Positions 7,234-37,318 of a DNA stretch of 64,000 nucleotides are shown piece after piece (the stretch's first letter is position 1; each line of letters begins with the position of its first letter). The DNA comes from Torpedo marmorata (lineage: Eukaryota). The stretch lies in assembly GCA_977017645.1 (NCBI GenBank), contig OZ360229.1, positions 78,182,001 to 78,246,000 on the forward strand, given 5' to 3'. A program made the position numbers and the translations under genes. The notes below the pieces were generated by a model. That model did no database searches and was not told the DNA's origin. It saw nothing but the letters and a program-made list of their open reading frames with translations.

Positions 7234-7236
7234 CTT
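7234..7236 (-). CDS. NCAM1: NCAM1 3-nt AAG microexon
   Basis: ctggtgaacag|AAG|gtaaaa, with TGCATG at 7269-7274 and a displaced pyrimidine tract upstream. Lies between the 42-nt exon and exon 13, as for the known NCAM1 AAG triplet exon. Confidence 0.8.
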
Positions 7237-8769
7237 CTGTTCACCAGCGTGGACGACATCATCAGCACCATGCAAGCCACATGACAAAGTCACATGATAC
7301 GCACGTACATAATTGGTTGAAAGGAAAGTGGAGGAGAGCACATGAAAAATATAAAATTAAAACTGATGTAAACATGGGCAGAAATAGAGTCACAGACTGA
7401 ATCAACCAAAACCAAACCAAAAAACAGTAAAATACAAATGGGACGCTGGGATATTTAAGTCAAGCTCTCTGGTTGCAACAAACATCAGCAGTATTTCCTC
7501 TGGCTGCAATTGTAAATGAGAACGTTTAGTAGTTAAACAATTTGAAAGAAAAAATTGCAAAGCATTTTGTTACAGAAATGCAATTAGTTTCAGGCAAAGC
7601 TTGAACATCTCAGTGAAAAAAAAATTGATCAAAATACAATAACTGATAATTTTATCCCAGGATGCAGATTCTTGAACTCTCCCCAAATAACATCTTCAGA
7701 GGAAATTTTGCAGCTCTACAAATGCAGGGAGCAGCACCCCTTTTCACAAACACTTCCATCACAGGTTGTGAATTTAATCATCCCCAAAACTCACAACCAT
7801 ATCTGAATTTTACACTTTTCAGCACCGGTGATTTCCATTTGATTCAGGAAAACCACAAATGGAAAGGTGTACAAATTTTATTCCATTCCACATGCGATGC
7901 CATGGCAACAATGCAGCAATTATGCAATGAATGCGAGATGATGCAGAAGCTGTTGTAAAAAAAACTGCAATGGGAGTCTTGCTTGTATGCTTCAATCTGA
8001 TGCATTTGGCAGGCTACAAATAATGTTCATTATGAGACATACTATATGCTAATGAATGAAGAGTACAAGGCCACAGTAGCTGAGTCCTGTAGACATGCCC
8101 AGCCGAAATCTAATGAGAAAATAAAGAATACATTTCTAAAATTTCAATAGGATCACTGGGTAGACTGGGCTTGGGGGAAAAAAATTAAAACAAATTGAAT
8201 CAGTTCTGTCGTTGATTCTCACAATGTTGTTTTTCAGTTTAGCATCTAAACAATTGATAAAAAGTGCTTAGCTATAGTTTTAATATGGAAAAAATATTTT
8301 TTTAGTAGGTTATGTTGTTGCATCCAGCAATATTTTGTTGCAATGAATGTTGCTACTAATGTTCTGCCTTGCTGAAATAAAAAAAATTGCATTAGTTCTG
8401 TATTAAAATAAAATCTCCACTGATATTTTCTTCGCTGAAAGCAAAGTGGCATTAGTCTTGCACTGCACTAAGAAAAAACAGGATTAATGTTTAGTTGCAT
8501 TAGAACCCCAATACGAAATAAGTTGCATTTTTTAATTCAATAGGTTCCCTTTATTTTTCAAAACTTTTAAAATTACTTTTCTCAAAGAATCCCTATGATA
8601 ACGAGTTGTCCCCACTCACTATCTTTGAAATTAATTGCTTCTTTCCATAATTAAGTGATGACAACTCATAAATAAAACAGCTGGCTTTTTAAATCATCGC
8701 TGTCTCTCAACAATGAGAAGGACCCTCAGAATTTTCTGAGCTCGCAATCTGAAGTAGAGGGCTGCCTAA

Positions 8770-9350
8770 TCATAGAATCATAGAAAACCTACAGCACAAT
8801 ACAGGCCCTTCGGCCCACAAAGTTGTGCCGAACATGTCACTACTCTAGGAATTGATAGACTTACTTATATCCCTCTATATTTCTGAGCTCCATGTACCTG
8901 TCCAAAAGTCTCTTAAAAATCCCTATAAAATCCACCTCCACCACCGTTGCCGGCAACTCATTCCACGCACCCACCACTCTTTGCGTAAAAAACGTACCTC
9001 TGACATTTCCTCTACACCTTCTTCCCAACACCTTAAACCTGTGTCCCCTTGTAGCAACCATTTCGGCCCTGGGAAAAAGCCTCTGTCTACATGATCAAAG
9101 CCCCTTATCATCTTAAACACCTCAATCATGTCCCCTCTCATTCTCCTTCATTCCAAGCAGAATAGTTCCCTCAACCTGTTTTCATAGGGCATGCTCCCTA
9201 AACCAGGCAACATCCTAGTAAATCTCCTCTGCACCCTTTCTAATGCCTCCACATCCTTCCTGTAGTGAGGCGACCAGAATTGCGCACAATACTCCAATAT
9301 AGGTCTGACCAACGTCCTATTCAGTTGCAACATTACCTCTCGACTCCTAA
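8770..9350 (-). mobile_element. CR1 LINE 3' fragment
   Basis: Translates to the CR1 ORF2 C-terminus (LVRPILEYCAQFWSPHYRKDVEALERVQRRFTRMLPGL; RGDMIEVFKM; FFTQRVVGAWNELP); tail (ttctatga)n. Confidence 0.9.
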
Positions 9351-10450
9351 ATAATGCTATCCAAAGACCCGCCATTGATGGAAGAGAACTGCACACTCTG
9401 CGATGTCGATAGGGGCTGTGGGGACGATAAAAGGTCAGTGATAACGCAGTGAAGGCGAACAATTCTGCTCCCACAGTGGTTCTGCCCAGAGAAAGCAGAA
9501 GATTTTCTCCCTTCCCATCCCAAATCTGTGACCACCCCTGAACTACAAAACCCAACACATTCACCCAAGCAATCATTATTCACATGCAAAAGTGACTCCA
9601 CGACCCAAGGTCTTAAATGTACACACACGCACCATCAGTCAAAACTAGTGACTAGGGGCAACAGGGTTCATCTGCAATATCCCTGGGTTCAGGTACCAGG
9701 AAGAATAGAATCAATGTAGTGACCAACCTTGTCTATTTCACACATGCATTGATGGAAGAAACTTGCTAAGCCCTGTTAAGGAATGACTTATGCCAGACTT
9801 AAGGCACTTGTCCTGATGAAATAAGTGAAAATTTGAATCATTTCTTGGTAATGCTTGATCAACAAGAAATAAGTATTGATCACTTCCACTCTTGTGAACA
9901 GCTTCCAATCTTCTCAGTTCCAAATAAATTAATCAGAAATAGCTGTGGCAGGAATATATTTTTTGAGCACTAAGTTCCCAATATGTTGCTTATTTTAAAT
10001 AACCAAGATAATTGATGCTTTTAGCAGAACAAAGAAACAAATTATCAGCAGCAAAATGTCAATTATTCTGTCATATTGAGGGTATTAGAAGGAACAGGAA
10101 AGAGTTTTAATTCAGGTACTCTTGAACCTTTTAACTGAAGTGACATTTGCATTCACAAATCTGAACAGTATAGACACTAAGCTCTTCATATGATTACTAG
10201 CAAATAATTTAAATTTCATTTTTTTTACACTTATTCACCAAAATTAAACTGATGGTAGTACATGTTAAGAGCATGCACTGTAGCCCTTATACAAATGTAG
10301 AATGATTACGCAAAATATTGTTTAAACAATTTCTGATTAGCAAGTAAAAATTTTGATATTGGACATTTTATATAAAGAATTACATCCACGTTGAACCAAA
10401 CACTGGCATATCAAAGCATTCTGCTTGCTGTCAGTATCTTTGGATAGCAT

Positions 10451-10698
10451 GACCTTATTACACAGAGATCCCGCAATACTGCCGTAAAGAAGACCCATCA
10501 TTAAGCCGGCTTTGCTTTTTTTAACACTGAACCAAACAACGCTGGCATAATGCAATTTGGCGCTGTGACTACCTCCGTTGCCGGCTTAAAGGCGGGACTA
10601 CAATGACCCCCCATTCTGTGTTCGTACCTTTTACACAGAACGGCGTGGCGCAATAAAGACGCAATATTCCCGCCTTGAAGAGGCTGTGTAAAAGGGGC
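10451..10698. mobile_element. PIF/Harbinger-like MITE
   Basis: Imperfect TIRs gaccttattacacag ... ctgtgtaaaaggggc, plus an internal inverted repeat (ttaagccggc / gccggcttaa). Confidence 0.55.
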
Positions 10699-11089
10699 TA
10701 ATGTCTAAAGTGTTGTGGGAACAAAGACATTTACCAAACAGCATCGAATAGAATGAACAAGATGCACAACTTAATAGATGTCAAGATGCATTCAATTTAC
10801 GGTAACATTGAATGAATAATTCATTTTTACTTTTCGTTTTTGCTTTGATATATTTACCGTAACTATATTGAACAAACAGCACTCTCCCTCAAACTGAAGT
10901 TGCTTGAGCTGTCAAGTGCGTTGTGATAAAATTTTGTCAGAAACCAATGCAAATCTGTCAGTGCAGCCAGACGACAGAGTCGGGCATTTATCATTGGCCA
11001 CAACATGGTCTATAACCACACTGGAGGATGCCAAAAAATGCAAGAGAAATACTAGTACCAAGAAACTGATGATGACATCTTCAACAGAA

Positions 11090-12590
11090 GTTAGTACATG
11101 CATGAAATCAGGATTATAAATTAATGTGTTTAAATGGCTTCTATATATTATATTCTAAGCTACATAGATGAGAAAATTGCCACAACTTTTAAAAGGAACA
11201 TCAATGGCAGCACACAGATTTGACGTACACAAGATTTTATAGCTCATCAACCACAGATGAATTAGGTTACCGAGATAGGGACAAAGATTGCATTCCTCCA
11301 GTCAAGTTGGAGTCTTTGTTTTTACTTGCTCATATTGGAAACTACTCATATGTCTATTTTGTCACCTCCAAATTAAAGAGAATAATTTTTTCCATAATCA
11401 TGAATTCCATTCAGTTACAGCAGACTGATTTCACACTATTTTAAATTCAAATTATATACACTGAAATAAATTGCTACATATTTGAAACTGCTTGACAGAG
11501 GTTAATTAGTGCTGGTGTCAACATACATCTCCCTCTACTTACAAAAACATGCAATTTCCACCACAAATTAAGCGAGGAATATATTTATTGTTACTTTTCT
11601 GTTGGTAGCTATCTCTTGGCCCACACTGGGATGTGATAAATTGAAAGAAATACAAAGACAGGAGATCCAATGCCAGGTGCAGCTGCTTAAAGGCTTCATA
11701 AGCAGGAGGCCCCCCCCACCCAAAAAAATATTGAACTCCATTCAACAGAACAAATTATTTTTCCCTCAAACTGGCATATAAAAAATGTTTCTGAAAATTA
11801 AAACCTTTTGTTATGAAAAGGCACTACTGATAATACAGCTCCTCAAATATGAGCTCCATCTAATAAAATTATGGTAGCCTTTATGAATTTTTAATTTTAA
11901 TTCAAAATATTGCTCGAGTTCAAAGTGATATCTAAGATTTGTTTGAAATAAACAATCCTCAATAATCTGCACAAAATTTGAAGTTTCTCTAGTATAAACC
12001 GAGGGTTTTAGTGCAACTGCGCGATTATCCTACAGTCGAAACCATGCAAGCACAAATCATTGGCCAGGTTATTTCTGCTAGACTGCATAAGGAACTCCAT
12101 GGCAACACAATCCAACGTAATCAGAATAGTCCCAAGTGGCAACTCATCCAAGGTGTTAAAAATGTTTCACAAGTGAAATGCGTGTGCAGAGAATGTATTT
12201 GGTTTGGTAAATATGGTTAATAAATCATGCAAACTTAAAACCAGAAATGGTTATGTCTCTGGCTAATGATACACTGAAGAAACTTGTGTAGGTTAAAGAA
12301 CATCCTCTTCATTGTCACGGCTGGAAGCTGAAACTAATGTCATGCTGAGAAATCTTTAACTTTATAGATTAATATTCCACTTTTAATTGAAGCAATATTA
12401 AGAACATCTAATTCATGCTATCAAACTTCAAACTGCATTTTCTCTTGTGCAAAAAAAAAGTTTTCTCAGCTTCAAATCAATCCAAATTTCAGGCTCTCGT
12501 ATCTGGAAGGTTGACTGAACCCGACTTTAATAATAGTTGGAGAAGCTAGACTTGCTGAGGGACTTATAAAACAAACAACGGCATGCAAGT
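11090..12590 (-). promoter_or_regulatory. Cluster of RBFOX (TGCATG) splicing elements downstream of the 42-nt microexon
   Basis: Minus-strand TGCATG at 12582, 12226, 12043, 11548 and 11097; the last abuts a QKI-type ACTAAC. Confidence 0.65.
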
Positions 12591-12598
12591 ATACTCAC

Positions 12599-12640
12599 TA
12601 GATGAATTGAGTGATGGGAAAGGAGATGAAAGAAGGGTGG
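12599..12640 (-). CDS. NCAM1: NCAM1 hinge microexon (MSD1c/12C-like), 42 nt
   Basis: ttgcctttctttccatag|CCACCCTTCTTTCATCTCCTTTCCCATCACTCAATTCATCTA|gtgagt. Phase 1-1, Ser/Pro-rich xTLLSSPFPSLNSS; TGCATG 11 nt into the downstream intron; same length as tetrapod MSD1c. Confidence 0.8.
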
Positions 12641-14510
12641 CTATGGAAAGAAAGGCAACAATAAATGAATTCATGTTCAAATGGTTTATGAAGCCTGAGA
12701 TGAACTGGCTTGCAGTATCATTCTGACTAAGAACACACGGTTCAATAAACCAAGGTAAGTGGCTGCACAGTTTTGTGGCAACTCAATAACCAAAAGGAAG
12801 CTTACAACACAGAGCATAAAGTTAACTTCAAAATGGGAAGCGAGGCCGTTGCATTTTCCTCTCAAACCGTCACTGTAGCTGAGTTAAGAGTATTTATAAA
12901 ATACGCGCACTCTCTTTAGAAATAAACAACTTTGCAGCTCAATAAAACCTTTTAACAACAGGAGAACTGAGAGCAGGATTAAGCCATGCAACCTCACGGG
13001 ACAGCACCTGTCATTCAAACTGGCCGATCCTGCCCTTTCGCTCCATTTCCCTTTATCTCTTGGTTCTCCTCGTATCCAGAATGATTTTAGTTAATTTGAT
13101 TCACATTGGAAAGTGTCTATTTGCTCCTGAAGTTGCTTTTAGAAAATGTAAAATATTAAAGCCGGATCTCAATGCTAAAAACATGAAGACCAAGACATAG
13201 GAAAGAGTTTGTGAAGCAGGTCCCTATGAACAAAAAAATTAGTGGCAGTAAATGTTGTTATTTCTTGCATTGAACTCACTCAGTCAAATAAATTTGCCTG
13301 GAATTTATTCCTAGTTGGGTAATCCAATATTACTTCATTGGTTGTCTGACGTTAAGTATTTACAAGTACCACAGGCCAGAAATAAGTTTCGAGGCAATAT
13401 AGTTTTAAATTACCTTTGAAAGGGGAACTAGTCTTTTCTTATTAGAAATCTGATGGATTTCTTGTACTAGCTGACAGATTTACTGGCCATAATGCATTTC
13501 ATCTACAGGAACAATATTTTTTGACCAATATGCCAGTGAAAAGGTGTCATAAAAGAATGATTTTTTTGGAAGAAACTGTAACCATAAAAAAAGTTTCTTC
13601 TGATAATGTAAAAAGCAAGAACATAATACCAGATGGGATAGATTTAAATCAAACAGCATTCTCCACATTCAGTGTTGTGTTACAGTCTTAATTTATCGAA
13701 GCTTCAAATCAGCAACAACTCCTTATCAAGAGCAAAGAACAACCCGCTGGAGGAACGGAGAGAAAAATGGTCCGGAACCCTTCATCAAGACTGTTCTCCC
13801 TCTGATGCTGATTGACCCACCGAGTCCCTCCAGTAGATTGTGTTTTGCTTCAGATTCCAGAATCTGCAGCCTCTCGTGTGTCTGCAATCTTTATTGGAAG
13901 GTCCTATCCCTTTGGTGCAATGCTTGATTCACAGTTGTCAGATTCCACATTGATCATAATTAAATATAACATACGTCAGGAACAAAACAGAGCCTACTTG
14001 TTTGTTCTTTACTTGAACAGGTTTCCTGGTCAATTTCAAGTAATTCCAATGAAGTGCTGTAGATGTAATGCAATGATATATAAACACATCTAATCTATAC
14101 TGCCTGGTCTGGTACAGTATGCAAGTTTTTTGTGATATTAATTTTGATTTTTTTTCTCCCACCAAAGCCCTCCAGAAAAAAAGAATAGAAATCCATCCAC
14201 TTGCTTCAAATTCAATTCAACATGGGATGCAGAAGGTAGAGAAGGACTTGACCAAGGTAGACAGAATTCTGAGAGGAACTGATAGGCTGGATAATTAGAG
14301 ACTTTTCCCCTCAGCAGAAGTGGAAGAGCGCATGGGTTTTGAGGAAGAACCCAGGGGGCTGTTGGAATCTGGACGCCACTGCCCGAGGAGGGTGTTGGCA
14401 ACAGGTACTCTGACAATATTCAAGTACTATTTAGAAGAGCACATGAATCACAAAAATATGGAAGGCATGAGTTGAGTGCTGGAAAATGGGAGAAGAATTT
14501 AAAATTTAAA

Positions 14511-14754
14511 TTTAGACATACAGCACGTAACAGGCCATTTCGGCCCACTCCGTGCCGCCCAATTTACACCCAATTAACCTACACCCCCGGTATGTTTCAA
14601 ATGGGGGGAGGAAACCGGAGCCCCTGGGGAAAAACCATGCAGACACGGGGAGAACGTACAAACTCCTTACAGACAGCGCGGGATTTGAACCCAAGTCCCG
14701 ATCGCTGCCGCTTTAAAGGTGTTGCGCTAATCGCTATGCCAACCGTGCCGCCCC
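14511..14754 (-). mobile_element. tRNA-derived V-SINE (HE1-like)
   Basis: tRNA-like head, V-domain gagtttgtacgttctccccgtgtctgcatgg, CR1-like tail ggcctgttac..gctgtatgtctaaa; several near-identical copies in the window. Confidence 0.9.
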
Positions 14755-14834
14755 AAATGGACAGGTGTGGACCCAGTGGGCCAACATGCTGCATGACCCA
14801 ATGAGCTCAAGTTAAAATCCAGAACTGTTTAGTA

Positions 14835-15210
14835 AAACACGAAAGTCTGCAGACACCGTGATTGAGGTAAAAACACAATGTTGGAGAAACTCAGCAGGTC
14901 AAACTGTGTACTTTACATAGCAAAGATAAAGATACATAACTAATGTTTTGGGTTTGAGCCCTTCATCAAGGTATGAGCAAAATGTAGGCAGGTGCCCAAA
15001 CAAAATGGTGGGGGAGGGGCAGGGAAGGAGCACAGTCCCAAGGGCAGGAGGTAATAGGCGGATAAGGGAGGGAAGGCACACCAGCTTACAGGGGGAGGGG
15101 GGTGGAGAGCTGGAGGAAAGAAGACAGAGGGATGGGGAAGAGAGGGAGAATGGGGAGTGGGCTAGTAGAAACCGGAGAAGTCAATATTAATGCCATCCGG
15201 TTGAAGAGTG
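14835..15210 (-). mobile_element. Penelope-like element 3' remnant
   Basis: Shares the end of the GIY-YIG ORF (QPDGINIDFS) and the cttgatgaagggctcaa..ccgaaacgtt..gacctgctgagtttctccagca tail with the copy at 48690-49300. Confidence 0.7.
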
Positions 15211-16469
15211 CTCAGAACTGTTTAGTCATGGGTTCAGTGGGCAGGAATATCAACCCTGGGTCTCCTTGCCAAATGGAGATCTTCACGCTCTCCTCCCTCC
15301 CCCCACTCCCCAGCTGCCCCTGGCTCACGAACAGGAACTCCAGCCCGTGCAGTGGTGCTCACTCTTTTCCCTGTCAGGCTGCATGGCTTGTAAACTAGCA
15401 CCGATGGCACAGTCTGCAATTTCAATACAGCTCTCTTAATTAGTGCCAAATATTACAGAAATTAGCCACCCGTGCAAAGTTTCTTCTTCACAATCACTTC
15501 CAGTACTACCTGACACAGCAAATATCAATAGTCACTGAAAATGAGTCGCTCATCCAACCGCACTGTGGTGAGGGCAGAGGTATTACATTGAGAGGAAATG
15601 AAGACAACCATTAAATATGAAACATTATATGAAGCAGAAGCAATTAAGTGAAATAACAGCAGACATCTGCTGTATGGTTCCATCTGCTTATTAGTTGAAA
15701 ACAAGCTGATCCATTCTGCTTCCATGAAATGACTCCAGCTCGAAACATGGCAGAGATGGCATCTCAATATGATCCACTGGTTTGGACTAAGGAACTATTT
15801 CTCTCTTTTCTTGCATCACTATCCACTTTTCAGACTTCTGACAGATGATTGCAACAGTATATTTCCTTCAGTTATATAAAACTTTGCAGGAAAGAGTATG
15901 TAGCTCACTTTTTGCTCGTACTTTGAAGAAGGGCTCAGGCCCAAAATGTTGGTTATATACCTTTACCTCCTATGGATACTGGTTATACTGTATATCCTTA
16001 CCTCCTATGGACGCTGCAAGACCTCCAGCATTTCTGTGTTTTTACTACAGTGCCTGCAGACTTTCGTGTTTCCCTCCCACGGAGCTCACTAATGGTGGGT
16101 TACAAGGTGTGATTTAAGTGAAGGATTGCAACTTTGCCCCTATCCAATAGAGAGCAAAAAGATGGGTTTTCATAGATTGGTATTTGCTTCATGTTATCAG
16201 TTGCTTGCATTTTGAACAGTTATTGTGTCTTCCTTCCTGTAAAATTGTTCGCATTTGGTTATACCTAATACTGAATCGCCTTGACTCTAACAAGGTCGGC
16301 AATAACTGCTTAGCTTTGAAGCCATTCATAAACCGGATCTACCTTTATTTATCCTCTGAAATGCACAGCAAGAACCCATTATAAATATAATGTCACTACC
16401 CAATCTTGTGCAGCCAACCATAACACCCTGCCAAGATAAAGGCATGCTTGACGTCAGACAACAGCTTGG

Positions 16470-16705: not shown

Positions 16706-19262
16706 TTTTTTATAAAAAATTTTTATTTAAAATTTTTGAATCACAAAATACATAAAATAAAATGCAAAATTAACAAAATACATGTGATACATTTTCAACC
16801 CCCCCCTCCCTCCCCACCTCCCTAACCCTCCCGCCCCTACTAATCTACTAAAAGAAAAAAGAAAAGAAAGAAAGAAAGAAAAAGATAGAGTAAGGAGAAT
16901 GTCAATCTAAAAAAGAACAACTATAAACTGATTTTATTGTGGAAGATAGGTTCGCCAGTCAGATCTGATATCCAGAGATCTTCAAATCCTTAAACCAACA
17001 GTTTTTATATATGGGCTCCATATTTTCAAAAAGAAATGATATTTATTACGTAAATTATAAGTAATTTTTTCAAGTGGTATACATGAATGAAGTTCTGCAT
17101 GCCATCTTTCTAACCCTAAATCTACATCAGATTTCCAAGTAATAGCAATGCATTTCTTAGAAACAGCTAAAGCAATTCGCAAAAATTCTATTTGATACAT
17201 ATTTAATTTCATCTTAATACTAATTCTTTTAATATCTCCAAACAAAAATATCATAGGGTCCATTGGAAGTGTAATACTCAATACTTTATCTAAAAATGTT
17301 TTAATTTTCAACCAAAAATCATATATCTTTGGACAAAACCATGTAGAATGTACAAAAGAACCTTCCTCTCCATTACATCTAAAACATAAACCTTTAATTT
17401 TTTAGGCGTTAAATATAATTGATGAAAGAAATTATATTGCACTAATCTATATCTAACGTTAATAATCTTCGTCATACTTTGTTTACATAATTCTTTCCAA
17501 TGTTCCTCATCTATTATTACATTCAAATCTGATTCCCATTTTAATCTTGATTTGTGAATTCCTAATTTAGGCATTTTTCTCTGTAACAATCTATACATTT
17601 GAGAAATAAATTTATTTACACCTCCATTAGTAACTAATAATTCCAGTTCACTCTGTCTTGGTAAAGTCAAACTAAAACCCAACTTCCCAACTAAAAATGC
17701 TCTAATTTGATAATAAGCAAAAAGTGTATTGTTCATTAAACTTTTCTTTCATTCTTTGAAAAGTAATAAATTTACTGGCTTCAAAACAATCATTTATTTT
17801 CTTAATTCCCTTTTGGAACCAAATTTTAAATAACTGATTATCAACAGTAAATGGAATAAGTTTATTTTGATATAAAGGCATTTTTGGAGAAATCGACCCT
17901 TTCCCTCCTATCTCCCTATCCACTCTATTCCATATTTCTAACAAATGTTTAAAAATAGGAGAATTCTTCTCTCTTGTTAATAATAATTTAGAATTCCATT
18001 TATAAATAACTTCTTCTTTCAAATCTTCTCCTATATTATTTAGTTCTATTCTAATCCAAGCAGAAGACTTACCTAAATCAAACATTTCATTAACAAATTT
18101 TAATTGAGCTGCTTTATCATAACTTTGAAAATTAGGAAGTTGTAAACCACCCATTTCATAATTCCAAGTTTACTTCTCCATACTTACTCTAGCCAACTTT
18201 CCTTTCCACAAAAACTTCCTAATAATTAAATTTAAATCCTTAAAGAATTTCGAAGGGATTTCGTAAGGAATTGATTGAAAAAGATATTGAATTCTTGGAA
18301 AGACATTCATTTTAATACAGTTTACCCTTCCTATTAAAGTTATAGGTAAATCCTTCCAACTTTCTAAATCTTTTTTAATTTTCATAAATAATGGTAAATA
18401 ATTTATTTTATATAAATTAGCTAATTTTGTATCAATCTTTATTCCCAAATATTTAATTCCTTCCTTTGACCGTTTAAATTGTGTAATTTCTTTACATTTA
18501 CTATAATCCCCTTGCGTCAATGCCATAATTTCACTTTTATCAGAATTAATCTTATAACCAGATATTTCCCCGTATTCTTTCAATAAAACATTCAATTGTA
18601 ATGAAGAAGTAATAGGTTTTGTCATATAAATCAATACATCATCTGCAAATAAACTGATTTTATGCTCTTCTCTTCCAACTTTAATACCTACAATCTTAAT
18701 ATCTTGTCTAATTAATTCTGCCAAAGGTTCTATTGCTAAAATAAACAATGCTGGCGACAAAGGACATCCTTGTCTAGTTGACCTGGTCAAAGAAAATTTT
18801 GAAGAAATTTGTCCATTTGTCACCACTTTAGCAGATGGTTCTTTATATATAGTTTTAATCCAATTAATAAATGTAGTTCCAAAACCAAATTTCCCCAATA
18901 CCTTAAATAAATAATTGCACTCTAATCTGTCAAAAGCCTTTTCAGCATCTAATGTTAATACTAATGCTAGGTCATTTTTTTTTTCCACATTAATTAAACT
19001 AATTAATCTAGCTATATTATCTTTTGAATATCTATTCTTAATAAAACCAGCTTGAACTACATGGATTAAATCATGGTAAATAATTAGCCACTCTATTTGC
19101 TAAAATTTTTGCCATTATCTTATAATCCACATTTAACAATGAAATTGATCTATATGATTCTGTTTTCAACACATCTCTATCTTTTTTAGGTATAACTGTA
19201 ATTATTGCATTCGAAAATGTTTCCGGTAACGAATGGTGATGAATGTCTTTATTATTTGGAAA
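16706..19262 (-). mobile_element. 5'-truncated L1-clade LINE (ORF2 RT and C-terminus, frameshifted)
   Basis: Motifs YRSISLLNVDYKI, LDAEKAFDR, TRQGCPLSPALF, LFADD across ORFs 16982-19292. A-rich tail at about 16706-16735; 16-bp TSD attttgttcatatctt at 16690-16705 and 19263-19278. Confidence 0.95.
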
Positions 19263-19663
19263 ATTTTGTTCATATCTTGATGAAGGGTTCAAGCCCGAAA
19301 TGTTGGTTATGTATCTTTATCTTTGCTATATGAAGTACACTGTTTGACCTGCTGAAATTCCCCAGCATTGTGTTTTTACGTCAGCCCATGTATCAGTTTC
19401 ACCACATCCTAGCTTTCTCAGATATTTTGGACTGTCCACAGGCTCTTTTCAGACATTCCTGAGAGTAAAATCCTTTTGTTTCAGAAGGCTCAAAATGCCT
19501 GTGACCACTGTCAATCCCCACACTTATACAAATGGGAGAAGTATCTCTCATTAATATACGAAAGTGTTGGAGAAACTCAGCAGATCCCACAGCGTGCAGG
19601 GGAGGTATCTCGCATGTCTGGTACCAGTAGCTCAAGGTAGTGGCATTGAATATTTTTTTTTAC

Positions 19664-19696
19664 CTGTGGATGATTTGAGTGATGGACATGAATAGT
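19664..19696 (-). CDS. NCAM1: Candidate NCAM1 hinge microexon (MSD1b/12B position), 33 nt
   Basis: tatcgag|ACTATTCATGTCCATCACTCAAATCATCCACAG|gtaaaa. Phase 1-1, open (xYSCPSLKSST), same length as chicken 12B. The GAG acceptor and pyrimidine tract are weak. Confidence 0.4.
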
Positions 19697-20043
19697 CTCG
19701 ATACAGATAATCAATTTAATTCCCTCCATCAATAACATCTTAGCAGGACAGAAAGAGTAGGATCTCAGTTTTACTCCCTTGAGACTCAATCACTCATTCT
19801 AATTTTCACTGCTCCTTTGAATAATAACATCATTAGAATAAGATTCACCGAGAGCAGATTCCTCGAACAAATGAATTAGCAACTAATTGACAGATGCAGA
19901 GCAGACATCCAGTACAAATCAAGCTGGAAATTGGAGCAAGCAACAAAAGCAATCATTTAAATAATTCATGTTTATGTGCATAAAGTTGGTGGATTTTGTG
20001 AAGGATATGACATTTTGGGGAATTGCAAATGTTTTTACTTGAA

Positions 20044-20974
20044 CGTTACACCAGTGTCAGTACATCAGGGGAAATATTATATTAACTGTTGCAAGCTCCT
20101 GTTTTAATTAGTGAGCTCACTTTGGGGGTTGGTGTAGGCTGCAAACCATACACAGTTTTCACAACATTTACAGACAGCCTGGCACCATTGAGTCCAAACT
20201 ATAAACAAAGGATGCGCTCAACTAAGAACCCAGAACAATGGATGTTTACTCAAGGAGAAACAGATGGTGAGAGAGAAGTGATATGATTATGACTCGTGTT
20301 TGAGACTTAAACAGAAACAGATTTCAGTATTGATCAGCAAGTGATCTGAAAACACAGAGGTTGGAATGGCTCTATGAAATGGACAATTCGGATAATTCTC
20401 CTTGTCAGGGGAATTATTGTTGAGCCACTGAGACCATTGTAATGGTCATTTTGATTGACCCATATCTGGGTAAAGGAAGCAGGAGAATTGCTTCATTTGG
20501 ATCGTGACCATCGTGATGGTCATTTCGTCTGACCCTTTCCTGGGTTTTTGGAAGCATCGTGGAAGTCACATGTTTCGTTTCCCTTATGCAAGGAAGAGGG
20601 GAGTTGTGACAATCATTCGTATGAAAGAACATTTCTCTGGAAGCAACTCGACAAGGATTCATGAGTTTTGAGCAGTCTGATTACTCAGTGTCTCACCTAC
20701 TTCGTAATTACTTCTGAACATCAGTTTAAAAGTCTGAGATTCAACACAGGATTTCAAAGACTGAACTTTGGGAATTGACTTTCCGGAATTGTGCCTAAGC
20801 TGTAATGGTTTGTGTAAAACCCACACACACACACATAGGTATATTTGCGCATAGTTGGGGTTAAGTTTAGATTTAAGTAAGATGTTATATTATTAGTAAT
20901 TATTAATAAAAATATTGTTTTAAAAATAACATTGTCTTGGTGAATTTCTATTGCTGCTGGTCTGTGACGTAACA
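20044..20974 (+). mobile_element. Probable solo LTR
   Basis: (c)gttaca ... gtaaca ends; (AC)n, AATAAA and ttgctgctgg near the 3' end; same layout as 30974-31915. No clear TSD. Confidence 0.5.
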
Positions 20975-27500: not shown

Positions 27501-28945
27501 CCCAATCCACGCATTCTGGATCCTTTCTCATTTCCTCAAAATTGGCCTTTCTCCAATTCAGAATCTCAACCCGAGGCCCAGACCTATCCTTCTCCATAAT
27601 TAACTTGAAACTAATGGCATTATGATCACTGGACCCAAAATGTTCCCCTACACATACTTCCATCACCTGTCCTGTCTCGTTCCCTAATAGGAGATCCAGT
27701 ATTGCATTCTCTCTAGTTGGTACCTCTGTATATTGATTTAGAAAACTTTCCTGAACACATTTGACAAACTCCAAGCCATCCAATCCTTTTACAGTATGGG
27801 AGTCTCAGTCAATATGTGGAAAATTAAAATCTCCTACTATCACAACCTTATGTTTCCTGCAGCTGTCTGCTATCTCTCTACAGATTTGCTCCTCCAATTC
27901 TTGTTGACTATTGGGTGGTCTATAATACAACCCCATAAGTGTGGTCATACCTTTCCCGTTCCTCAGCTCCACCCATATAGCCTCAGTAGACGAGCCCTTT
28001 GTTCTGTCCTGCCTGAGCACAGCTGTGATATTTTCCCTGACGAGCAATGCCACTCCTCCCCCTTTCATCCCCGCCCACCCCCTCTCCCGTTCTATCACGT
28101 CTAAAGCAACAGAACAACAGAAGCCCGGAACATTGAGCTGCCAGTCCTGCCCCTCCTGCAACCATGTTTCACTAATGGCCACAATGTCATAATTCCACGT
28201 GCCAATCCACGCTCTAAGCTCGTCTGCCTTTCCTACAATACTCCTTGCATTTAAATAATTGCACCTAAGAACATTTCCACCACGTACAACCCGTTGACTT
28301 CTAACGGTGTATGCAATTTTCACATCATCTTTTCCCTCCTCCACTCATCTATCTGCTCTGGCACTCTGGTTCCCATCCCCCTGCAAATCTAGTTTAAACC
28401 CACTGGAGCAGCACTAGCAAACCTTCACGCAAGGATATTAGTCCCCCTCCAGTTTAGATGCAAACCGTCCCGTCGGAACAGGTCCCACCTTCCCTGCAAG
28501 AGAGCCCAATGATCCAGGAACCTGAAACCCTCCCTCCTGCACCATGTCTTTAGCCTCATGTTAAGCTGCATTATCCTCCTATTTCTAACCTCACTAGCAC
28601 GTGGCATGGGTAGCAATCCTGAGATCACAACCCTGGAATCCTGTCCTTCAACCTACCGCCTAACTCCCTGAACTCTCCTTGCAGGACCTCCTCACCTTTC
28701 CTACCCACGTCATTGGTCCCAATATGGACCACAGCATCTGGCTGCTCACCCTCCCTTCTGAGAATGCCGTGAACTCGATCTGAGATATCCAGATCCTGGC
28801 ACCAGGGAGGCAACATACTATCCGGGATACTCGATCTCTTCCACAGAACCTCTTATCTGTCCCCCTAACTATAGAATCACATATCACTACAGCTCGCCTC
28901 CTCTCCTCCCTTCCCTTCTTAGCCTCAGAACCAGACTTTGTGCCA
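24555..28945 (-). mobile_element. Near-full-length degenerate CR1 LINE (ORF1 esterase, ORF2 APE and RT)
   Basis: ORF1 GDSL/SGNH-like (DSIVRGTD, VHIGTND, DGLHLN); APE (YLNARSI, SETW, GDFN, SSDH); RT (QHGF, GVPQGSVLGP, FADD). TSD gggttt at 24549-24554 and 28946-28951; it splits a V-SINE. Confidence 0.95.
25906..26729. mobile_element. Non-autonomous pogo/Tigger element nested in the CR1
   Basis: TA|CCGTATATTTCGGCGTATAAGTCGACC ... GGTCGACTTATACGCCGAAATATACGG|TA. Both arms match 32181-34226 in inverted orientation; it splits the RT motif SLTSVV/KLLE. Confidence 0.95.
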
Positions 28946-29164
28946 GGGTTTACCCCGGGTGCTCCAGTTTCCTCCCACAGCTGACTGATGGGTGGGTCAG
29001 CACATTAATTAACCACTGTAAAGTGCCCCCTTCGTGTAGATTAGATGGTAAAATCTGATGGGAGTTAATTAGATTGCAGGAAGAATAAATCATTTTTTTC
29101 TGACATAAATAAATTAATTTAAAAAAAAAACCTTATCAAAATAATTAAAAACATTACTTAACTA

Positions 29165-29399
29165 GGGGTGGCACGGTTAGCACAACGCTGTTACAGTGCC
29201 AGCGACCGGGACTGGGATTCGAATCCTGCGCTGTCTGTAAGGAGTTTGTACGTTCTCCCCCTGTCTGCATGGGTTTCCTCTGGGTGCTCTGGGTTCCTCC
29301 CACCCTTCAAAACGTAGCGGGAATTGTAGGTCAATTGGGTGTAATTGTGCGACACGGGCTCGAGGGCCGAAAGGATCTGTTACCGTGCTGCATGTCTAA
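29165..29399 (+). mobile_element. V-SINE (HE1-like)
   Basis: ggggtggcacggttagc head, B-box-like gggattcgaatcct, V-domain, gtctaaa tail. Confidence 0.9.
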
Positions 29400-30149
29400 A
29401 GCAAACAAATTGAACATTGTTTATTTCACTCCTATTTGCTTTCAAACTTGCAGGTTTTAGATTGTGTGCCTGGTTTAATGCTGCAGGATCAACAGGAGAT
29501 TCCAAATGTTGCAGGGAAGTTGAAAGTTTCGGCATTTGGAATCAGCTAGTGATTCCCACCTCACACTGTGTGTACACTGCTCCGGGACTTCCTTTGGTTT
29601 AAATGGTTGTGTGTTGGTGTTCCCAACAACAGTCAACACAACCTGGCCCCCCTGCCTTTCACCCATCCTAGGATAACATCTAAGTATGTCAGACATTTGT
29701 CGCCGTAACTTAATACTTCCCCAGACGGAAAGAAATATGCTCCGACAATCAACTAGTCTACACACATCGATTTATTTACATCAAATTGACGACAGAAACT
29801 CAACAAATAAGATGCTTTAATATGAAACACAGTGTATTGTATCCAAACAAAATGAAGGATTGCGGGGAAATTACTGAGTCACATTTGGAAAATCTAGACT
29901 AATACTTATCAATGTTTATAGTGTTGCCCTGAAGATCCTGAAAGAAAATTGATCTCATTAGCCAGTTGCAATGCTGTGCTAGTTATTTCTTATGAGATAA
30001 CCGGCAATTAACAGTTACTTGTAACAATACAATTCCCTCTAATTACTTTTAAAATGCATTAGTTATGCTTTTCATGTGTCTGTGAAGCCTGACACCTCCG
30101 CATGTTCAGGAAAAAATGGTACCTGCGATAAAGGATGGGCTTAAACACT

Positions 30150-30943
30150 AGCCCCTTTCACGCTGGCACCTTATCCTAGTAATTAATGGCCAATATACCA
30201 GTTAAAGGGCCAGTGTGAACGCTCGCGAATCGGCACGCAGGCGTCAAATCACCCCGGGGACGGACCGCCTAGGTAGGGTGTATCATCCCCGGTGTCATCT
30301 GATGCCTGCGTGCCGATTAGCCCAGTGTGAAAGGGACATGGACTTATCCAGGGACAAAGTAGTGACGCGTTGATGATGTTTTTGCGTGAGTGCAGGAACG
30401 TGAAGGAAACAAAAGATTAAAAAAAGGTATAAACTTTGTATTCAATTTAATAAATCCTGATCAATGTATTATGATCTTGTATTTAAACAAAATTAATCAT
30501 GCCTAATTATAACATAATTAAGCATTATGTACAGCACAGTATGAGCCCTTCAGCCCCTGTTGTTGTGCCGACCTATATAATCCTTTATAAATTTATAAAG
30601 GACCTTGGGAAAGTGGTAGCGGCAATAAAGAGAGAGAGAGAGTGATGGTGGACCTGCGCTCCCAGAATTCCGTGCGGCAGAGAAAGGGCTGTATGCACGG
30701 AGCACAAATGGAGGGGTTTCTCTGCCACACGGAATTCTGGGAGGGCAGGTCCGCCATCGCTCGATGCTTCACTCAGACGTCACCGGTGGAGGATAGGCGC
30801 CCCTCTCCCCGGGGATGCCTGGTGGTGAGTGTGAAAGGACGCAGAGAACCGGTTAACAGTGGTCCAGTGTAAATGGCAAAAACGGCTTCTTTAACCGGTT
30901 CATTGAACGGCCAGTTTACAGGTTAGCCAGTGTGAAAAGGGCT
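30150..30943. mobile_element. PIF/Harbinger-like non-autonomous element
   Basis: TIRs agcccctttcacgctgg ... ccagtgtgaaaagggct; ACT on both sides (3-bp TSD; a TA TSD is also readable); internal repeats of ccagtgtgaa and a long internal inverted repeat (30640-30760). Confidence 0.75.
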
Positions 30944-30973
30944 ACTAATTGCAGACAATCACTTTCTTGAAGC

Positions 30974-31915
30974 TGTGACACCAGCAAGGTCATGCTAATT
31001 TATTGAAAGGTTAAGTGTTATGGACCATGACTGACCATTTGGACTGCGGACGGTCAGCAGGAAGGATGAAGTCTTTTGGAGTATACACTGGGGCCAGGTA
31101 TTGAAAGAGTTAACTTCCCCAGCTACTTGGTGTACCCAGACAAGATACATTGTTGCACTCTTGGTGTACCCAGACAGAGAGAGACCAGAGAGAGAGAGAG
31201 ACAGACTGGACAAGATACATCTGTTTCACTTTTGCAAAAAGCAGGTGCAGATTTCTGCAGGAAAAGCAAACAGTTGTGAGTTGCAAAGGCTACAGAACAC
31301 AGCCAAATCCAGGTTTGTGCATAGTCAGAGAAAAGACTGACAGGATAGCACATGGCCTCCTGTCTCAGGGAAATTCTGAGAAAAAGCAACTTCTGTGGAG
31401 AACAGGCGTGAGATCAGCGAGACTAGCTGTGAGATTCAAGCATACGCCTAAATCAGTGGTATACTGATCTGGAACTTGCAATCCTTATGAACCTACAAGA
31501 AGGGGACGTCATCAGAGAAGAAAACAAGTATTTGTAAGCATAAACAGTCATTGTCTCTCTCCAACGTTCATTCAGAAGTACTTCTACCAGACAGAGCTGA
31601 AGTTGAAGCCTGAACTTAGAGAGTGGATTTTGTCGACTGTATTATCCTTTTTTTTGACTGACTTGTTTTTTATGACTGACCTGGGGTTTTTGGGGAAAGT
31701 TTTTCCATTTTTACATAAGGGTTGGGCACAGACTGTAATGGTCTGGGCTTTACACACACACACACACACCTTTTAGATAAGAATAGTGTTATAGACGTTT
31801 ATAGTGGGGTTAATTGTTGTGAAATTATATGTTTAATTGTGTTTAATAAATAGTAATTTCAATTTAACCCCTTTTGCATTGCGTCTTCTGTCGTTGCTGG
31901 TTTGAATTTGTAACA
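30974..31915 (+). mobile_element. Probable solo LTR
   Basis: tgtgaca ... tgtaaca termini, (AG)n and (AC)n tracts, AATAAA near the 3' end. TSD is degenerate (gaagc/taagt). Confidence 0.55.
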
Positions 31916-32180
31916 TAAGTGTCTACCTTCAGAGTCCCCTGGTACCTGTTATTATGCATGGTCTGCATGACAAACCTTCAGGTCACACGAAAGCTTGATG
32001 CAAATCACTCTCCCCTCACTGACGAACTAGAAACTTCAACTTCAGAAATACAAAGTAACTCCCACTGTTCACAGAACATTAAACAAATCAAAGGCGTTAA
32101 AAGCAGTGTGCATAAATACTAAGCCAAAACTCAATGGCCATTTGCAAACTACAAAGTTTGGTCACTTGGCAAAGAAAATA

Positions 32181-34226
32181 CCGTATATTTCGGCGTATAA
32201 GTCGACCCTTGAAACCCTCAAAAATGTCTCAAAAAACGGGGGTTGACTTATACGCCGGATATACTTTTGAGACCTTAAAATCAGCTCAAAATCGAGTTCA
32301 TGCCTATTCGGCGTATAAGTCGACCCCTGAAAACACGATTCGGCGTATAAGTCGACCGCTGAAAACACGATTCGGCGTATAAGTCGACCCCTGAAAACAC
32401 GATTCGGCGCATAAGTCGACCCCTGAAAACACGATTCGGCGCATAAGTCGACCCCTGAAAACACGATTCGGCGTATAAGTCGACCCCTGAAAACACGATT
32501 CGGCGTATAAGTCGACCCCTGAAAAACCACAAAAAAAACCCGACTGCAACAAATTTTCATTGACATTTTTATTGAAAACAACAAGACATTTAGAACCCTT
32601 CAAAATCACTTTCGCTATTATCGTCTGAGGCAAAGATCTCGGCAAGCACATTCGGGGTCTCACTGTTTAAACAGTCATCGTACGGGTCCCAGTCTGTATC
32701 TGATGAGGCGTCTTCAGCTTCGTCGTCAGTGTCCCACAATAAATCATCTTCCGTACCATCAATTGCACAAGAGATACCGCACTTTTTAAACGATTTTATT
32801 ATAGTCTCTACTTTCACTTTGTCCCATGCCTTGAGCACGAAGTCACACAGCACATCAAGCGATGTAGCACGCATTGCCCCGCCTTTTGTAAAGGATTTTT
32901 CTGCACTCGACATCCATGTATTCCACTCTTCACGCACATGGTCTTTGAATGGCTTGTTCAAGCAGACATCGAGAGGTTGCAATATAGACGTCAAACCACC
33001 CGGGATAACCGCCATGTAAGTATTATGTTGTGCTAATGTACTTTTAGTCTTCTCAGTTAAGTGGCTACGAAACATATCCCAGACCAGCAAACTCCGTTCT
33101 TTGCGTAAACCGCCTGGCCGCCTGTTCCACACATTGTCTATCCATAGTTTTACACCATTTTCATCCATCCATCCTTTTTCATGAAAACGTACAAAAATAC
33201 CTGCTGGGAAATTTATTTTAGGTTTAAGTTTGCGCTTGAAGATTACCATGGGTCGTAACTTTGTCCCGTCGGCCATGCACGATAACACCACAGTAAACCT
33301 TTCATGTCCTGTACTCCTCGCTTGCACAGTTTTCACACCTTTCCATTCCACTGTTCAATATCCATATCATGTCAAAATTCATGGGGGTTTCGTTCATGTT
33401 TCCAATATTTGCCAATGCAAACTTGTGTTTCTGCCGGTTACGTAAAATAAACTGGTGAAAACTTACAACTTTATGATCAAGATCTTTTGGTAGTTTCTGA
33501 GCAATTTTAGTTTTTTGTCGTAATACCAGATTTTTCCTGTTCATAAAACGGTTGCACCAGCCTACTGTAGCTTCAAAATCATCACTGAGTTCTGGGTGCG
33601 ACTTTGCCCAGTTCAGTGCAAATGTTCTTATTTTATTTCGGGTTACTATGTAGCAATCTTGCCTCTGTTAACGTACCCATGTTGCGACGTGATTTTCCAA
33701 CTCTGGCCAACGAGTGATTCCTCTTCTCATCGAACATTGCCTTTTTGGTATTTTTCTTAAAGTATCTTCTTTCTTCCTCCAATCTCTTACCAACTTCTCG
33801 TATATATCAAATTTTCTTGCAGCAGCACAGTTGTTGGTTTTCTTGGCCATTTCTATAACTTTCAATTTAAAACTCGCCTCATACTTTCGTCGTTTCAATT
33901 AACCCTCCATGATAACAATCACCGCCAGCAAACGCCCAGCAGCTCAATCAGCGCGATCGTTGTGGGTCGACCTATACGCCGGTCAATGCCCAGCAGCTCA
34001 ATCATCGCGATTTTTGGGGGTCGACCTATACGCCGGTCAACGCCCAGCAGCTCAATCATCGCGATTTTTGGGGATCGACTTATACGCCGGTCAATGCGCA
34101 ACATCTCAGGCATCGTGATTTTTGGGGATCGACTTATACGCCGGATATACCATAAAACCATTAAAATGAGGCTGAAAAAGGGGGGTCGACTTATCTGCCG
34201 GTCGACTTATACGCCGAAATATACGG
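32181..34226 (-). mobile_element. pogo-family (POGK/Passer-like) DNA transposon, full length, inactivated
   Basis: 27-bp perfect TIRs with TA TSD; subterminal arrays of the gtcgacttatacgccg motif (32-bp unit, about 7 copies at 32309-32522). Confidence 0.95.
32590..33910 (-). pseudogene. pogo transposase (Brinker-type DBD, CENP-B HTH, DDE_1), disrupted
   Basis: RRKYEASFKLKVIEMA; WPELENHVATWV; IGNMNETP; LLVWDMFRSH; LQPLDVCLNKPFK; acidic tail. In-frame stops at about 33899 and 33668, a frameshift near 33360, and the first catalytic D appears as N. Confidence 0.92.
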
Positions 34227-34371
34227 TATTCTTTGACTGCTGTGTGAATTTATTGCATTCAAATGGTCTACCTTTGTACAACTAAGTATTTCATTTATGC
34301 AAAACTGGCTTGTGGGTATCATTTTAATCTAACATCCTCAACTGCAAACCAATTACATTAGAGGTCAGTAC

Positions 34372-35823
34372 CAGGGGTGCAGTGCTAATTTTTTAGGTGC
34401 TGGAGCTCACCAAAAACGGCGACAAGGAGGTCTCGCGAGACCTGACCTTGGTGGCCGCCATGTTGTATTTGGCGTTCTATAATTGAGAGCGTTGTATAAT
34501 AGGACAAAGTATTGCACGGTTGCACTCACTAATTATCATAAAATATAATTATCAACAAGTAAAGATCACCTTCCTTATCAATTTCACATCTCAAATAAAC
34601 TATGATCAGGCTTGTTGATTCATCAACGAGAACAGAAGTTTTGCCATTTATATGCTTGATATGCTGGCAAATATTCTTTTTCATATTAATGGCTATGTGA
34701 TTAATTCTCTCTGTAGCACTAGTGCGGGAATGCAGTCCAATTCCAATGTCAATACCATTTTTGTTTTGATGTTCCAGTAAACCAAAGTGATCAGAGTATG
34801 GTCTGTCATTCTGAGCTAAATAATATGCAGAATGAAAAATTGAACTTCTCTCTCTCTCCCTCCAACCCCCTGTTCTCTCCTCACTCCCCTGAATATTTTC
34901 TACTTCACTCATTTAGCCACCTTCCTGTAGAATCTGCTTCATGCTACTTTTGGAGTGACCCAAATCTCAACCCACCAGATGATTTCTTTTTCTGAAGAAC
35001 CACTGCTCTCTCCTTTGACCGCCCTCACCATCTCCTGTTCCTCCCCTGGATCTTGCCGGTGCAGCCCTGGACCCGGCCAGTGTACCCCTCGCCCTCTGCA
35101 TGCCCCCCTAGTTTTGACCAAACTGGTGGTCCCTGCTGTTCGGACACCGCGCACTGATCCTCGGACACCGCACGTGTGCAGGATGGGGCAAGGGGCTCGG
35201 CGCATCCCGCCCACCTCCCTCCCGGGGCCGACGCTCGGCCCTCCCTCCCGGGGCTGACCTGCTGAGGACAGGAGGGCGCCATGGTTCATCATTGGAGGGC
35301 TGAGGGTCCCTCTCCGCACCCGCACACAGCGGCGAAGTTCAGCCCCGTGGCAACGCGCCGGCGGCGACAGAGCCGGCCCCGCCCTTCCCTTCCCATCGCT
35401 GCCCGTGTCCGCCTTCCCCACCCGGGCTGCTGCTCCTCCTCCTCCGCTCGGGGCTCTCCGAGGGTCGGGCTGCTCCCCGTTCTGACGGAGACCCCCTCGT
35501 CCTGCACCCTAATCCGCTGAGTGCTTACCCTAAAGCGGACAAAGGGGATTCCCCTTGAATAGGACATGGGGGGGGGTTGCGGCCATTCAACCCATCGCGT
35601 CCATGCTTGACAAGGAACTCCCTCGCCTTATTCCACATCCTCCCCCAGTTCTAGTGCCCTGCTGGTCACAATTCTTAGCAAACACATCCAAGTAAACATT
35701 TCTCCTCTAATCCATCGACTAAATGTTTTCAATGTCTCACTCTCTGCTGAAAGACAGAAATCCTAGTGATTACAGAGGTGCCGGAGCTGCACTCCGGTGA
35801 GCTCTGGCAGCGCTGCACTCCTG
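34372..35823. mobile_element. hAT transposon derivative with transposase fragment
   Basis: TIRs caggggtgcagtgc ... gcgctgcactcctg; 8-bp TSD gtcagtac/atcagtac (7/8 match). Minus ORF 34529..34912 (AYYLAQNDRPYSDH...LHSRTSAT..HIA..M...SVLVDEST) resembles KIAA1586/ZNF862-type hAT transposases. Confidence 0.85.
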
Positions 35824-35900
35824 ATCAGTACCTGATTTATGGAGCATTTACACTGGTTAAAAATACCCGTGTTTCCAGATCTTGTGTAGTCAACACTGCT

Positions 35901-36128
35901 GGTGGCACAGTTAGCGCAACACTGTTACAGCACCAGCGACCGGGGTACGAATCCGGCGCTGTCTGCAAGGAGTTTGTACGATCTCCCCGTGTCTGCATGG
36001 GTTTCCTCTGGGTTCTCCGGTTTCCTCCCACCTTCCAAAACATACGGGGGTTGTAGGTTAATTGGGGTATTTGGGCAGCACGGGCTCATGGGCCGGAAGG
36101 GCCTGTTACCGTGCTGCATATCTAAATT
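35901..36128 (+). mobile_element. V-SINE (HE1-like)
   Basis: Head, V-domain and tail as in the other copies. Confidence 0.9.
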
Positions 36129-37297
36129 AAAAAGGCCTGCCCTCCACTAGCTCCCATCTTGTAGATCCCGGGAGAGTAGCTTGAAACCAGTGGATCAAAG
36201 CTACAAGTAGGATGGGGCATGACATGGGGTGGCGGGGGGGTGGGACGAACAGGCAAGCTTGAGCAAGGCAAATGGATGAAGCCAAGGGTTTTGGGGCTAG
36301 CTGCGGGGCAGGGATCTACTTATAAGTGGCTCAGAGCAGGATTGTGGGTCCATGCATTCAATTAAGTTTACTATTATTGTTTTTTTTACACACACACAAG
36401 TACCTGTTCAGCAGCAGCAAGTGAGAATTTTGGTGAGAATGCACATTGCACACATTACATGATGTATATGACAATAAACTTGTTTTCTTCTTTGTTATCT
36501 CACGGGTCAGAAAGTCACCAGGATGTATGCACATACCAAGGGTGCAAGAGGTGACTCACATCATGAAAAGGTCAATTTCATGCTGGTTATTTTACAACTT
36601 TCCAGGCCCTTGTAAAAGTTTAAAAGAAATCAAATCAGGGCACCGACTTGCTGGCCCCAAGTTAGAACCACGGCCACAGGTACATAAATCACCTCGTCTC
36701 CACAAAGGCAGATGCTAGCAGCTGTAATCTCACCCATATACAAAGCTACCAAAAACACACTGACATGGTGTTGCTGTGGTAACTGATGACCAATACAATA
36801 TAGTTACTTTTGTGTTGGACATTCTACAAGTATGAGGGAAAAAGAACAAACAGCAACCAAGGCCACGTTAAATTAGAATGTTTTTGAGACAACAATGTAG
36901 TGACCAAACATCAAATGGTCGATGGCAGGAAATTATGAAATGTGTTTTTATAGTCTGGTCACATATTCATCGACTAAGCATCATCAGTCAGGGGCGTGAG
37001 GGGGCAGGGAGCTGGGGCCAGCCCTTGGATGATGCACTGATGCAGCCGGGAGGACGCAGAGTCCAATCCCAATTCCTTTCATTAGTGGACCTTGGCTCCC
37101 ACCTGATCATGACCCAAGTGTGGGGACCGGACCAAAGCAGGAGCCCCGCAATCTGAGAAATGGCAAATTGTGAGGCCATTTTGTGACTCTGCGTGCTCCC
37201 TGTGCTCAGACCATAACACACCGTGGGGCCTGTCTGCAAACATTGCAAAGCTAGGAGCAGATCAACGGACAGAGACAGGACGGTGGGATAAACTTAC

Positions 37298-37318
37298 TTG
37301 GCTGCCCAGTGAACACTG
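37298..37318 (-). CDS. NCAM1: Candidate NCAM1 hinge microexon (MSD1a/12A position), 18 or 21 nt
   Basis: Very long pyrimidine tract (about 37335-37430), then gaag|cag|TGTTCACTGGGCAGCCAA|gtaagt. Frame-preserving phase 1-1; encodes LFTGQP (18 nt) or PVFTGQP (21 nt). First candidate after exon 12. Confidence 0.7.

Follow-up and report, generated by a model that had tools for sequence, protein, structure and literature searches.

We analyzed a 64,000-nt stretch of Torpedo marmorata DNA (the window; contig OZ360229.1 of GenBank assembly GCA_977017645.1, positions 78,182,001 to 78,246,000), whose minus strand carries part of NCAM1. A sequence-only reading of the window had proposed that the intron between the exons for FN3 domains 1 and 2 (the FN1 and FN2 exons) hides four microexons of 18/21, 33, 42, and 3 nt. 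We conclude that three of these segments (21/18, 42, and 3 nt) are very likely alternatively spliced exons, likely adding a Pro/Ser/Thr-rich linker between the two domains, and that the 33-nt segment probably lies outside the conserved cassette. The arrangement resembles the hinge cassettes of birds and mammals, in a three-exon form.

Prediger is said to have described in 1988 a chicken NCAM insert of four exons totaling 93 bp. The chicken exons are 12A to 12D, of 15, 33, 42, and 3 nt; in placental mammals MSD1a, MSD1b, MSD1c, and AAG measure 15, 48, 42, and 3 nt. The NCAM1 model of ptarmigan, a bird, resolves as 15/33/42/3. In the available text of two papers, the mammalian exons are named a, b, c, and AAG (PMC2644493), and the AAG exon yields QG or KG (PMC2267215).

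Probable exons a, c, and AAG in the NCAM1 hinge intron

The FN2 exon has one match in the 6.2-Gb genome, and the nearest sequence to it is NCAM1 of Narcine bancroftii (98% identity, top of 623 matches). Fitting the Narcine protein across 14 introns confirmed both flanking exons, which enclose a phase-1 intron of 38,408 nt, as the sequence-only reading had placed them. The FN3-tandem structures 2vkw and 2vkx match Narcine NCAM1 residues 499-720. The segments lie in the NCAM1 intron between FN3 domains 1 and 2, the location that marks the MSD and 12A-D cassettes:

39722 to 39856, minus strand: NCAM1 constitutive exon, second half of FN3 domain 1, 135 nt, phase-1 donor (tblastn and junction fit to Narcine NCAM1)
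37298 to 37318, minus strand: hinge exon a (12A/MSD1a slot), very likely, 21 nt, or 18 nt via a tandem acceptor at 37315 (white-shark homology, Narcine and shark models, 120-nt AG-free run, single-copy DNA)
19664 to 19696, minus strand: 33-nt segment, unlikely to be a conserved exon, with a 3′ end and donor similar to the c-AAG join after splicing (weak acceptor, no homologue, 25/28 join match, single-copy island between repeats)
12599 to 12640, minus strand: hinge exon c (12C/MSD1c slot), very likely, 42 nt, Pro/Ser-rich (homology rank 1/1059, single-copy DNA)
7234 to 7236, minus strand: AAG 3-nt microexon (12D), very likely (124-nt AG-free run, donor 7.4, TGCATG at -38, relatives' isoforms, single-copy DNA)
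1189 to 1313, minus strand: NCAM1 constitutive exon, first half of FN3 domain 2 (98% identity to Narcine NCAM1 and junction fit)

The four segments had been described accurately. Each is bounded by AG and GT and is a multiple of three in length; they follow one another in the proposed order on the minus strand (37318/37315-37298, 19696-19664, 12640-12599, and 7236-7234), and their join contains no stop. By itself, this AG-GT, phase, and no-stop description is not beyond chance, since a count of AG-GT-bounded, frame-preserving, phase-1 segments between 3 and 180 nt without a stop gives 2092 in the intron, including 53 of exactly 33 nt, and high scores are as frequent on the opposite strand. With a splice-site model whose training set was just 14 introns from this NCAM1 gene, the five forms (both versions of the first segment included) ranked 154, 52, 29, 10, and 9, and segments scoring 8 or more numbered 51 on the opposite strand versus 38. 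As the opposite strand was equally rich in high scorers, we rejected splice-site score as proof of an exon.

The AG-free run upstream of the acceptor was 120 nt for the 21/18-nt segment, 124 nt for AAG, 52 nt for the 42-nt segment, and 25 nt for the 33-nt segment, lengths reached by 8, 6, 77, and 412 of 2538 AGs, respectively. A filter on AG-free run and donor left six candidates, four of which were a21, a18, c, and AAG, and removed the 33-nt segment; its cut-offs were chosen after the values had been seen, and two opposite-strand candidates also passed.

Relatives provided the evidence that carries the assignment. The hinge was read out of 166 proteins covering 23 cartilaginous-fish species (one could not be parsed); isoform sets are incomplete, and counts refer to the isoforms listed. 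In the RefSeq models, at least 11 of the 23 species have exon c, all of these also have the first exon, and AAG, seen as QG, KG, or EG isoforms, is in at least five. Exon a is joined straight to exon c in ten of the 11 species that have c. Both exons and the direct join are shared by T. marmorata with shark RefSeq models and with Narcine (XP_069751028-038), where four of ten isoforms (X1, X3, X5, and X6) contain 21 + 42 nt and one contains the 42 nt alone. When 1059 intron candidates of 9-60 nt were ranked against the hinge peptides of relatives, the 42-nt segment came first for exon c of Narcine, white shark, catshark, and chimaera, with 12 of 13 residues identical to Narcine and 7 of 13 to chimaera. 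The 21- and 18-nt forms were the top matches to white-shark exon a and ranked 6 and 11 against Narcine exon a.

From these comparisons, the 21/18-nt, 42-nt, and AAG segments are very likely real exons, and very likely orthologues of exons in the predicted Narcine and shark models. The proposed hinge cassette stands in its NCAM1 FN1-FN2 identity and very likely in three of its four exons, and the 33-nt member is unsupported. We found small, phase-1, frame-preserving exons with a terminal AAG triplet exon, as in MSD and 12A-D; we did not find the four-exon form, and no candidate in the intron resembled a b or 12B exon.

Like chicken 12A-D, the T. marmorata exons occupy the intron between the FN3 domains in phase 1, start with a short exon, include a 42-nt exon, and end with AAG; unlike chicken, T. 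marmorata has no supported 12B, and its first exon is 21 or 18 nt long and encodes another peptide. The Pro/Ser/Thr-rich hinge insert, a 42-nt exon in the c slot, and AAG match mammalian MSD1, but the 48-nt b exon is lacking. Exon c of T. marmorata encodes an N-S-S N-glycosylation sequon where Narcine and sharks have D (D-S-S in Narcine). The 3′ end of exon a (37298-37318) resembles the start of the FN2 exon (1313-1300), with the shared pattern G-[QE]-P.

Standard annotation had been expected to miss these exons. They are not hidden, since RefSeq models of relatives already include them, the four Narcine 21 + 42-nt isoforms among them; in favor of that expectation, for eight of nine batoid species, none of the listed isoforms contains a or c. 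A metagenome scan for DNA of relatives gave 598 pattern matches, none of which was confirmed.

Other candidates for the b slot (23218, 36823, 19923, 15562, and 14478) were rejected for a frameshift, a stop, a weak donor, or matches no better than antisense ones. The acceptor-like minus-strand sites at 19923, 36823, and 15562 have AG-free runs of more than 100 nt; the first, paired with the donor of the 33-nt segment, gives a 260-nt exon containing a stop, and the second, with a donor 90 nt away, gives an early stop. Long open reading frames in the intron are transposon-like, judged by eye. A 177-nt run of N (4900-5076), inside the intron between the AAG and FN2 exons, is unreadable and could conceal an exon.

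Two further observations concern the gene as a whole. A paralogue, likely NCAM2, lies elsewhere in the assembly (G000:C43:26.18-26.59 Mb; L028, L030, and L037) with 45-76% identity per exon. The 30-nt exon that we take to be VASE, a name used in PMC2116347, is intact (near position 1100 of L048, minus strand), with good splice sites and all 10 residues identical to Narcine.

The 33-nt segment

The sequence evidence makes it unlikely that the 33-nt segment belongs to the conserved cassette. Its acceptor is a GAG scoring 1.1, and the 50 nt before it contain two further AGs; use of the one with the richer pyrimidine tract would bring in an in-frame stop. Its peptide motif is absent from all 645 proteins compared, and no Narcine or shark RefSeq model carries its peptide. 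Against the middle exons of duck, ptarmigan, echidna, and catshark it ranked between 93 and 260 of 1059, with no similarity; the claim that it is the counterpart of 12B/MSD1b is unsupported. We also considered, and rejected, a piece of a repeat: repeats end at 20087 above the segment and start at 19607 below it, with an L1-like copy from 19235. That copy is a 5′-truncated element at about 16985-19235 on the minus strand, for which we counted at least 39 further copies (97-99% identity over the part searched); we labeled the family from reverse-transcriptase-like open reading frames read by eye.

The segment resembles something else in the same gene. Its last 22 nt and its donor match the end of exon c, AAG, and the donor of AAG at 25 of 28 bases, with a score of 41 for what was one of 11 joins tried, post hoc. 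This score was reached by none of 600, 600, and 500 shuffles (maximum 40), and the best score in the 400 kb flanking the locus was 31. None of 600 natural chimeras had a junction-dependent match, and 32 reached the score through repeats. We found no other site within three mismatches of the 28-mer in 6.2 Gb, where counts may be lower bounds. A run of nine A residues (A9) follows the segment, and a 6-bp direct repeat brackets it (chance 153/38,026, 0.4%). Since 5.4 kb of DNA separates exon c from AAG, true homology of the join would imply an RNA template.

The segment might accordingly have been copied, over a short stretch, from an RNA template that was a splicing intermediate, with c joined to AAG and the next intron attached; such a copy would have landed in the gene's own intron with a ready-made donor and may or may not be spliced. 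We regard this as improbable. It would account for a junction match beyond all shuffles, the flanking locus, and the natural chimeras, and for the A9 run and direct repeat as flanks. A young L1-like family is present, and cis RNA-templated repair has been described in yeast (available text of PMC11390984). Features that an L1 retrocopy would also show are the 25/28 match to a join lacking the intron, A9, and the 6-bp repeat, but the match is short and post hoc, the target site is atypical, and the TCA-rich stretch had been chosen by the sequence-only reading partly for its exon-like look. Taken alone, the match to exon c is weak: 4-10% of shuffles equal it, and a different site in the intron outscores it. 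The GTAAAA donor is ordinary, being found at 1 of 14 donors in this gene. L1 target sites usually start A-rich, and the 6-bp repeat does not. Landing in the same intron would require a cis mechanism, for which the prior is low. On balance, we lean toward chance as the source of the c-AAG likeness. If the RNA-templated reading were true, the segment would preserve, as a natural trace of a rare kind, a splicing intermediate that was copied back into the gene it came from, would record the splicing order of a 3-nt exon, and would point to a cis RNA-templated route to new microexons.

Less probable still is a partial duplication of exon c at the DNA level that acquired a new donor and became an exon of this lineage, an origin that the 30-nt insert of catshark may share. 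The segment is the second-best match to Narcine exon c among the 1059 candidates, and the catshark insert likewise best matches T. marmorata exon c (rank 1/1059, p about 0.02), but similarity to the flank of exon c stops at 17 nt, the donor differs from that of exon c, and the acceptor is weak.

Least tenable, and in our view very improbable, is the original model of a four-exon cassette with a real 33-nt exon orthologous to chicken 12B and lengths kept since the jawed-vertebrate ancestor: its order and phase are correct, the segment tops its 53 length-mates with a donor of 7.8 in single-copy DNA, catshark and chimaera carry middle-slot inserts of 30 and 135 nt, and the segment weakly resembles the final part of the chimaera insert (rank 6/1059, p 0.04-0.09), but exon a joins c directly in ten of 11 species, the middle exon is 36 nt in five of six birds, and the acceptor and homology results above count against it.

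Exon lengths and the age of the cassette

The sequence-only reading held that exon lengths were conserved from the jawed-vertebrate ancestor while the peptide diverged. Lengths vary in two of the slots: the first is 9, 12, 15, 18, 21, or 27 nt, and the middle slot is absent or 30, 33, 36, 48, or 135 nt. Exon a alone measures 21 nt in Narcine, 18 nt in sharks, 27 nt in Mustelus, and 9 nt in chimaera; in one Mustelus model (P0213) it ends early, possibly a mapping artefact. The bird middle exon, in the 12B slot, measures 36 nt in five of the six birds resolved (duck, cuckoo, dipper, tit, and scrub-jay) and 33 nt in the sixth, the only galliform; a further bird with long unresolvable inserts was excluded. 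Monotreme models resolve as 12/48/42/3.

Exon c (42 nt) and AAG (3 nt) have the only lengths kept between cartilaginous fishes and amniotes, with exon c at 42 nt in chimaera, sharks, ray, birds, and monotremes. The first exon, the 42-nt exon, and AAG are found from chimaera to birds and monotremes. In register, exon c similarity reached p < 0.05 in three of ten chondrichthyan-amniote pairs (chimaera-duck, 6 of 13 residues); the same-slot duck-echidna pair gave p 0.067. From these sequences, the layout of first exon, 42-nt exon, and AAG probably predates the split between cartilaginous and bony fishes. The proposed jawed-vertebrate age is retained, as probable, for these three elements and not for a 12B counterpart or for conserved length.

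The middle slot is lineage-specific. The insert there is 30 nt in catshark (Scyliorhinus canicula, P0185) and 135 nt in Callorhinchus (P0028). From its match to exon c, the catshark insert is possibly an exon duplication; an extension of exon c at its acceptor was rejected, as the T. marmorata bases upstream of c read differently. In the ray-finned and coelacanth hinges retrieved, later exons measure 30-57 or 90 nt and many hinges include AAG; first exons, of 15 nt, are seen in ray-finned fishes only. The gar 57-nt exon, and not any T. marmorata segment, resembles monotreme b (score 38, p ≤ 0.01).

NCAM1 models of gar (P0066), coelacanth (P0067), and a mormyrid (P0058) contain acidic, Ser/Thr/Pro-rich hinge inserts of 270-770 residues. 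The similarity of their N-termini was equaled by 6 of 2000 shuffles for gar-coelacanth and none of 2000 for gar-mormyrid; coelacanth and mormyrid are dissimilar. These sequences hint at an old mucin-like stalk in bony fishes. No sense-strand match below E 0.9 to a giant hinge exon of the gar or coelacanth type was found in the T. marmorata intron.

Several observations weigh against our interpretation of the cassette and its age. The isoforms listed for 11 of the 23 cartilaginous-fish species show no insert whatever, and AAG is in none of the ten Narcine isoforms. The relatives' isoforms are predicted models, produced by the RefSeq pipeline, which draws on RNA-seq. The 33-nt segment has a strong donor and the best score among candidates of its length. 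In register, T. marmorata exon c gives p 0.47 against duck and p 0.11 against echidna, and no 42-nt exon is present among the ray-finned and coelacanth hinges retrieved. Because the similarity of the T. marmorata copy is not significant and no bony-fish exon of 42 nt was retrieved, the match in length between amniotes and cartilaginous fishes may be a coincidence.

Possible regulation and significance of the hinge insert

Downstream of exon c lies a cluster of a motif that we take to be of the RBFOX type:

9748 to 12587, minus strand: TGCATG cluster downstream of exon c, first motif 12 nt past the donor (7 of 20 sense motifs in 3 kb)

The seven motifs within 3 kb after exon c give a binomial p of 5.5e-4 in a window chosen post hoc, and one of 16 antisense motifs falls there. 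One further TGCATG lies 38 nt upstream of AAG. RBFOX proteins favor an exon when they bind downstream of it and disfavor it when they bind upstream, so this placement would favor c and disfavor AAG, which fits the Narcine models that contain a and c without AAG. The cluster is the one feature that hints at tissue-regulated inclusion.

As all three exons are phase 1 at both ends, any subset of a, c, and AAG could be included without a frameshift, lengthening the flexible hinge between the FN3 domains. The inserts would add up to 22 residues at the FN3-FN3 linker, Pro/Ser/Thr-rich and with 8 Ser/Thr among 22 codons, counted by eye. Inclusion of exon c in muscle, heart, or electric organ would likely be turned on by RBFOX-type proteins. 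The T. marmorata linker is likely O-glycosylated and likely alters both the angle between the FN3 domains and interactions in cis, effects that have been proposed for the muscle-specific domain of amniotes.

The MSD cassette is characteristically included in muscle and heart and largely skipped in brain. In amniotes, the full insert is reported in muscle, heart, and skin and co-localizes with Z discs (PMC2120321). It bears O-linked sugar and has been tied to myoblast fusion by the glycosylphosphatidylinositol-anchored form (PMC2290859), and adhesion was unchanged in fibroblasts (PMC2115936). It is held to modify a flexible hinge, with a splicing role described as "not well understood" (PMC2267215).

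Knowledge of the cassette goes back to the 1980s, and public gene models already include its cartilaginous-fish exons. Our literature search, whose coverage stopped short of most subscription journals and the supplements of microexon atlases, found no paper on the cartilaginous-fish cassette or its ancestry; a mouse Ncam1 microexon is only mentioned in the available text of PMC7821500. T. marmorata adds one species' copy of the known cassette, with three exons rather than four. What the comparison contributes is modest: exon a, the 42-nt exon, and AAG were probably present in the jawed-vertebrate ancestor, and the middle slot turns over freely, being absent or 30, 33, 36, 48, or 135 nt long and reaching several hundred residues in gar and coelacanth.

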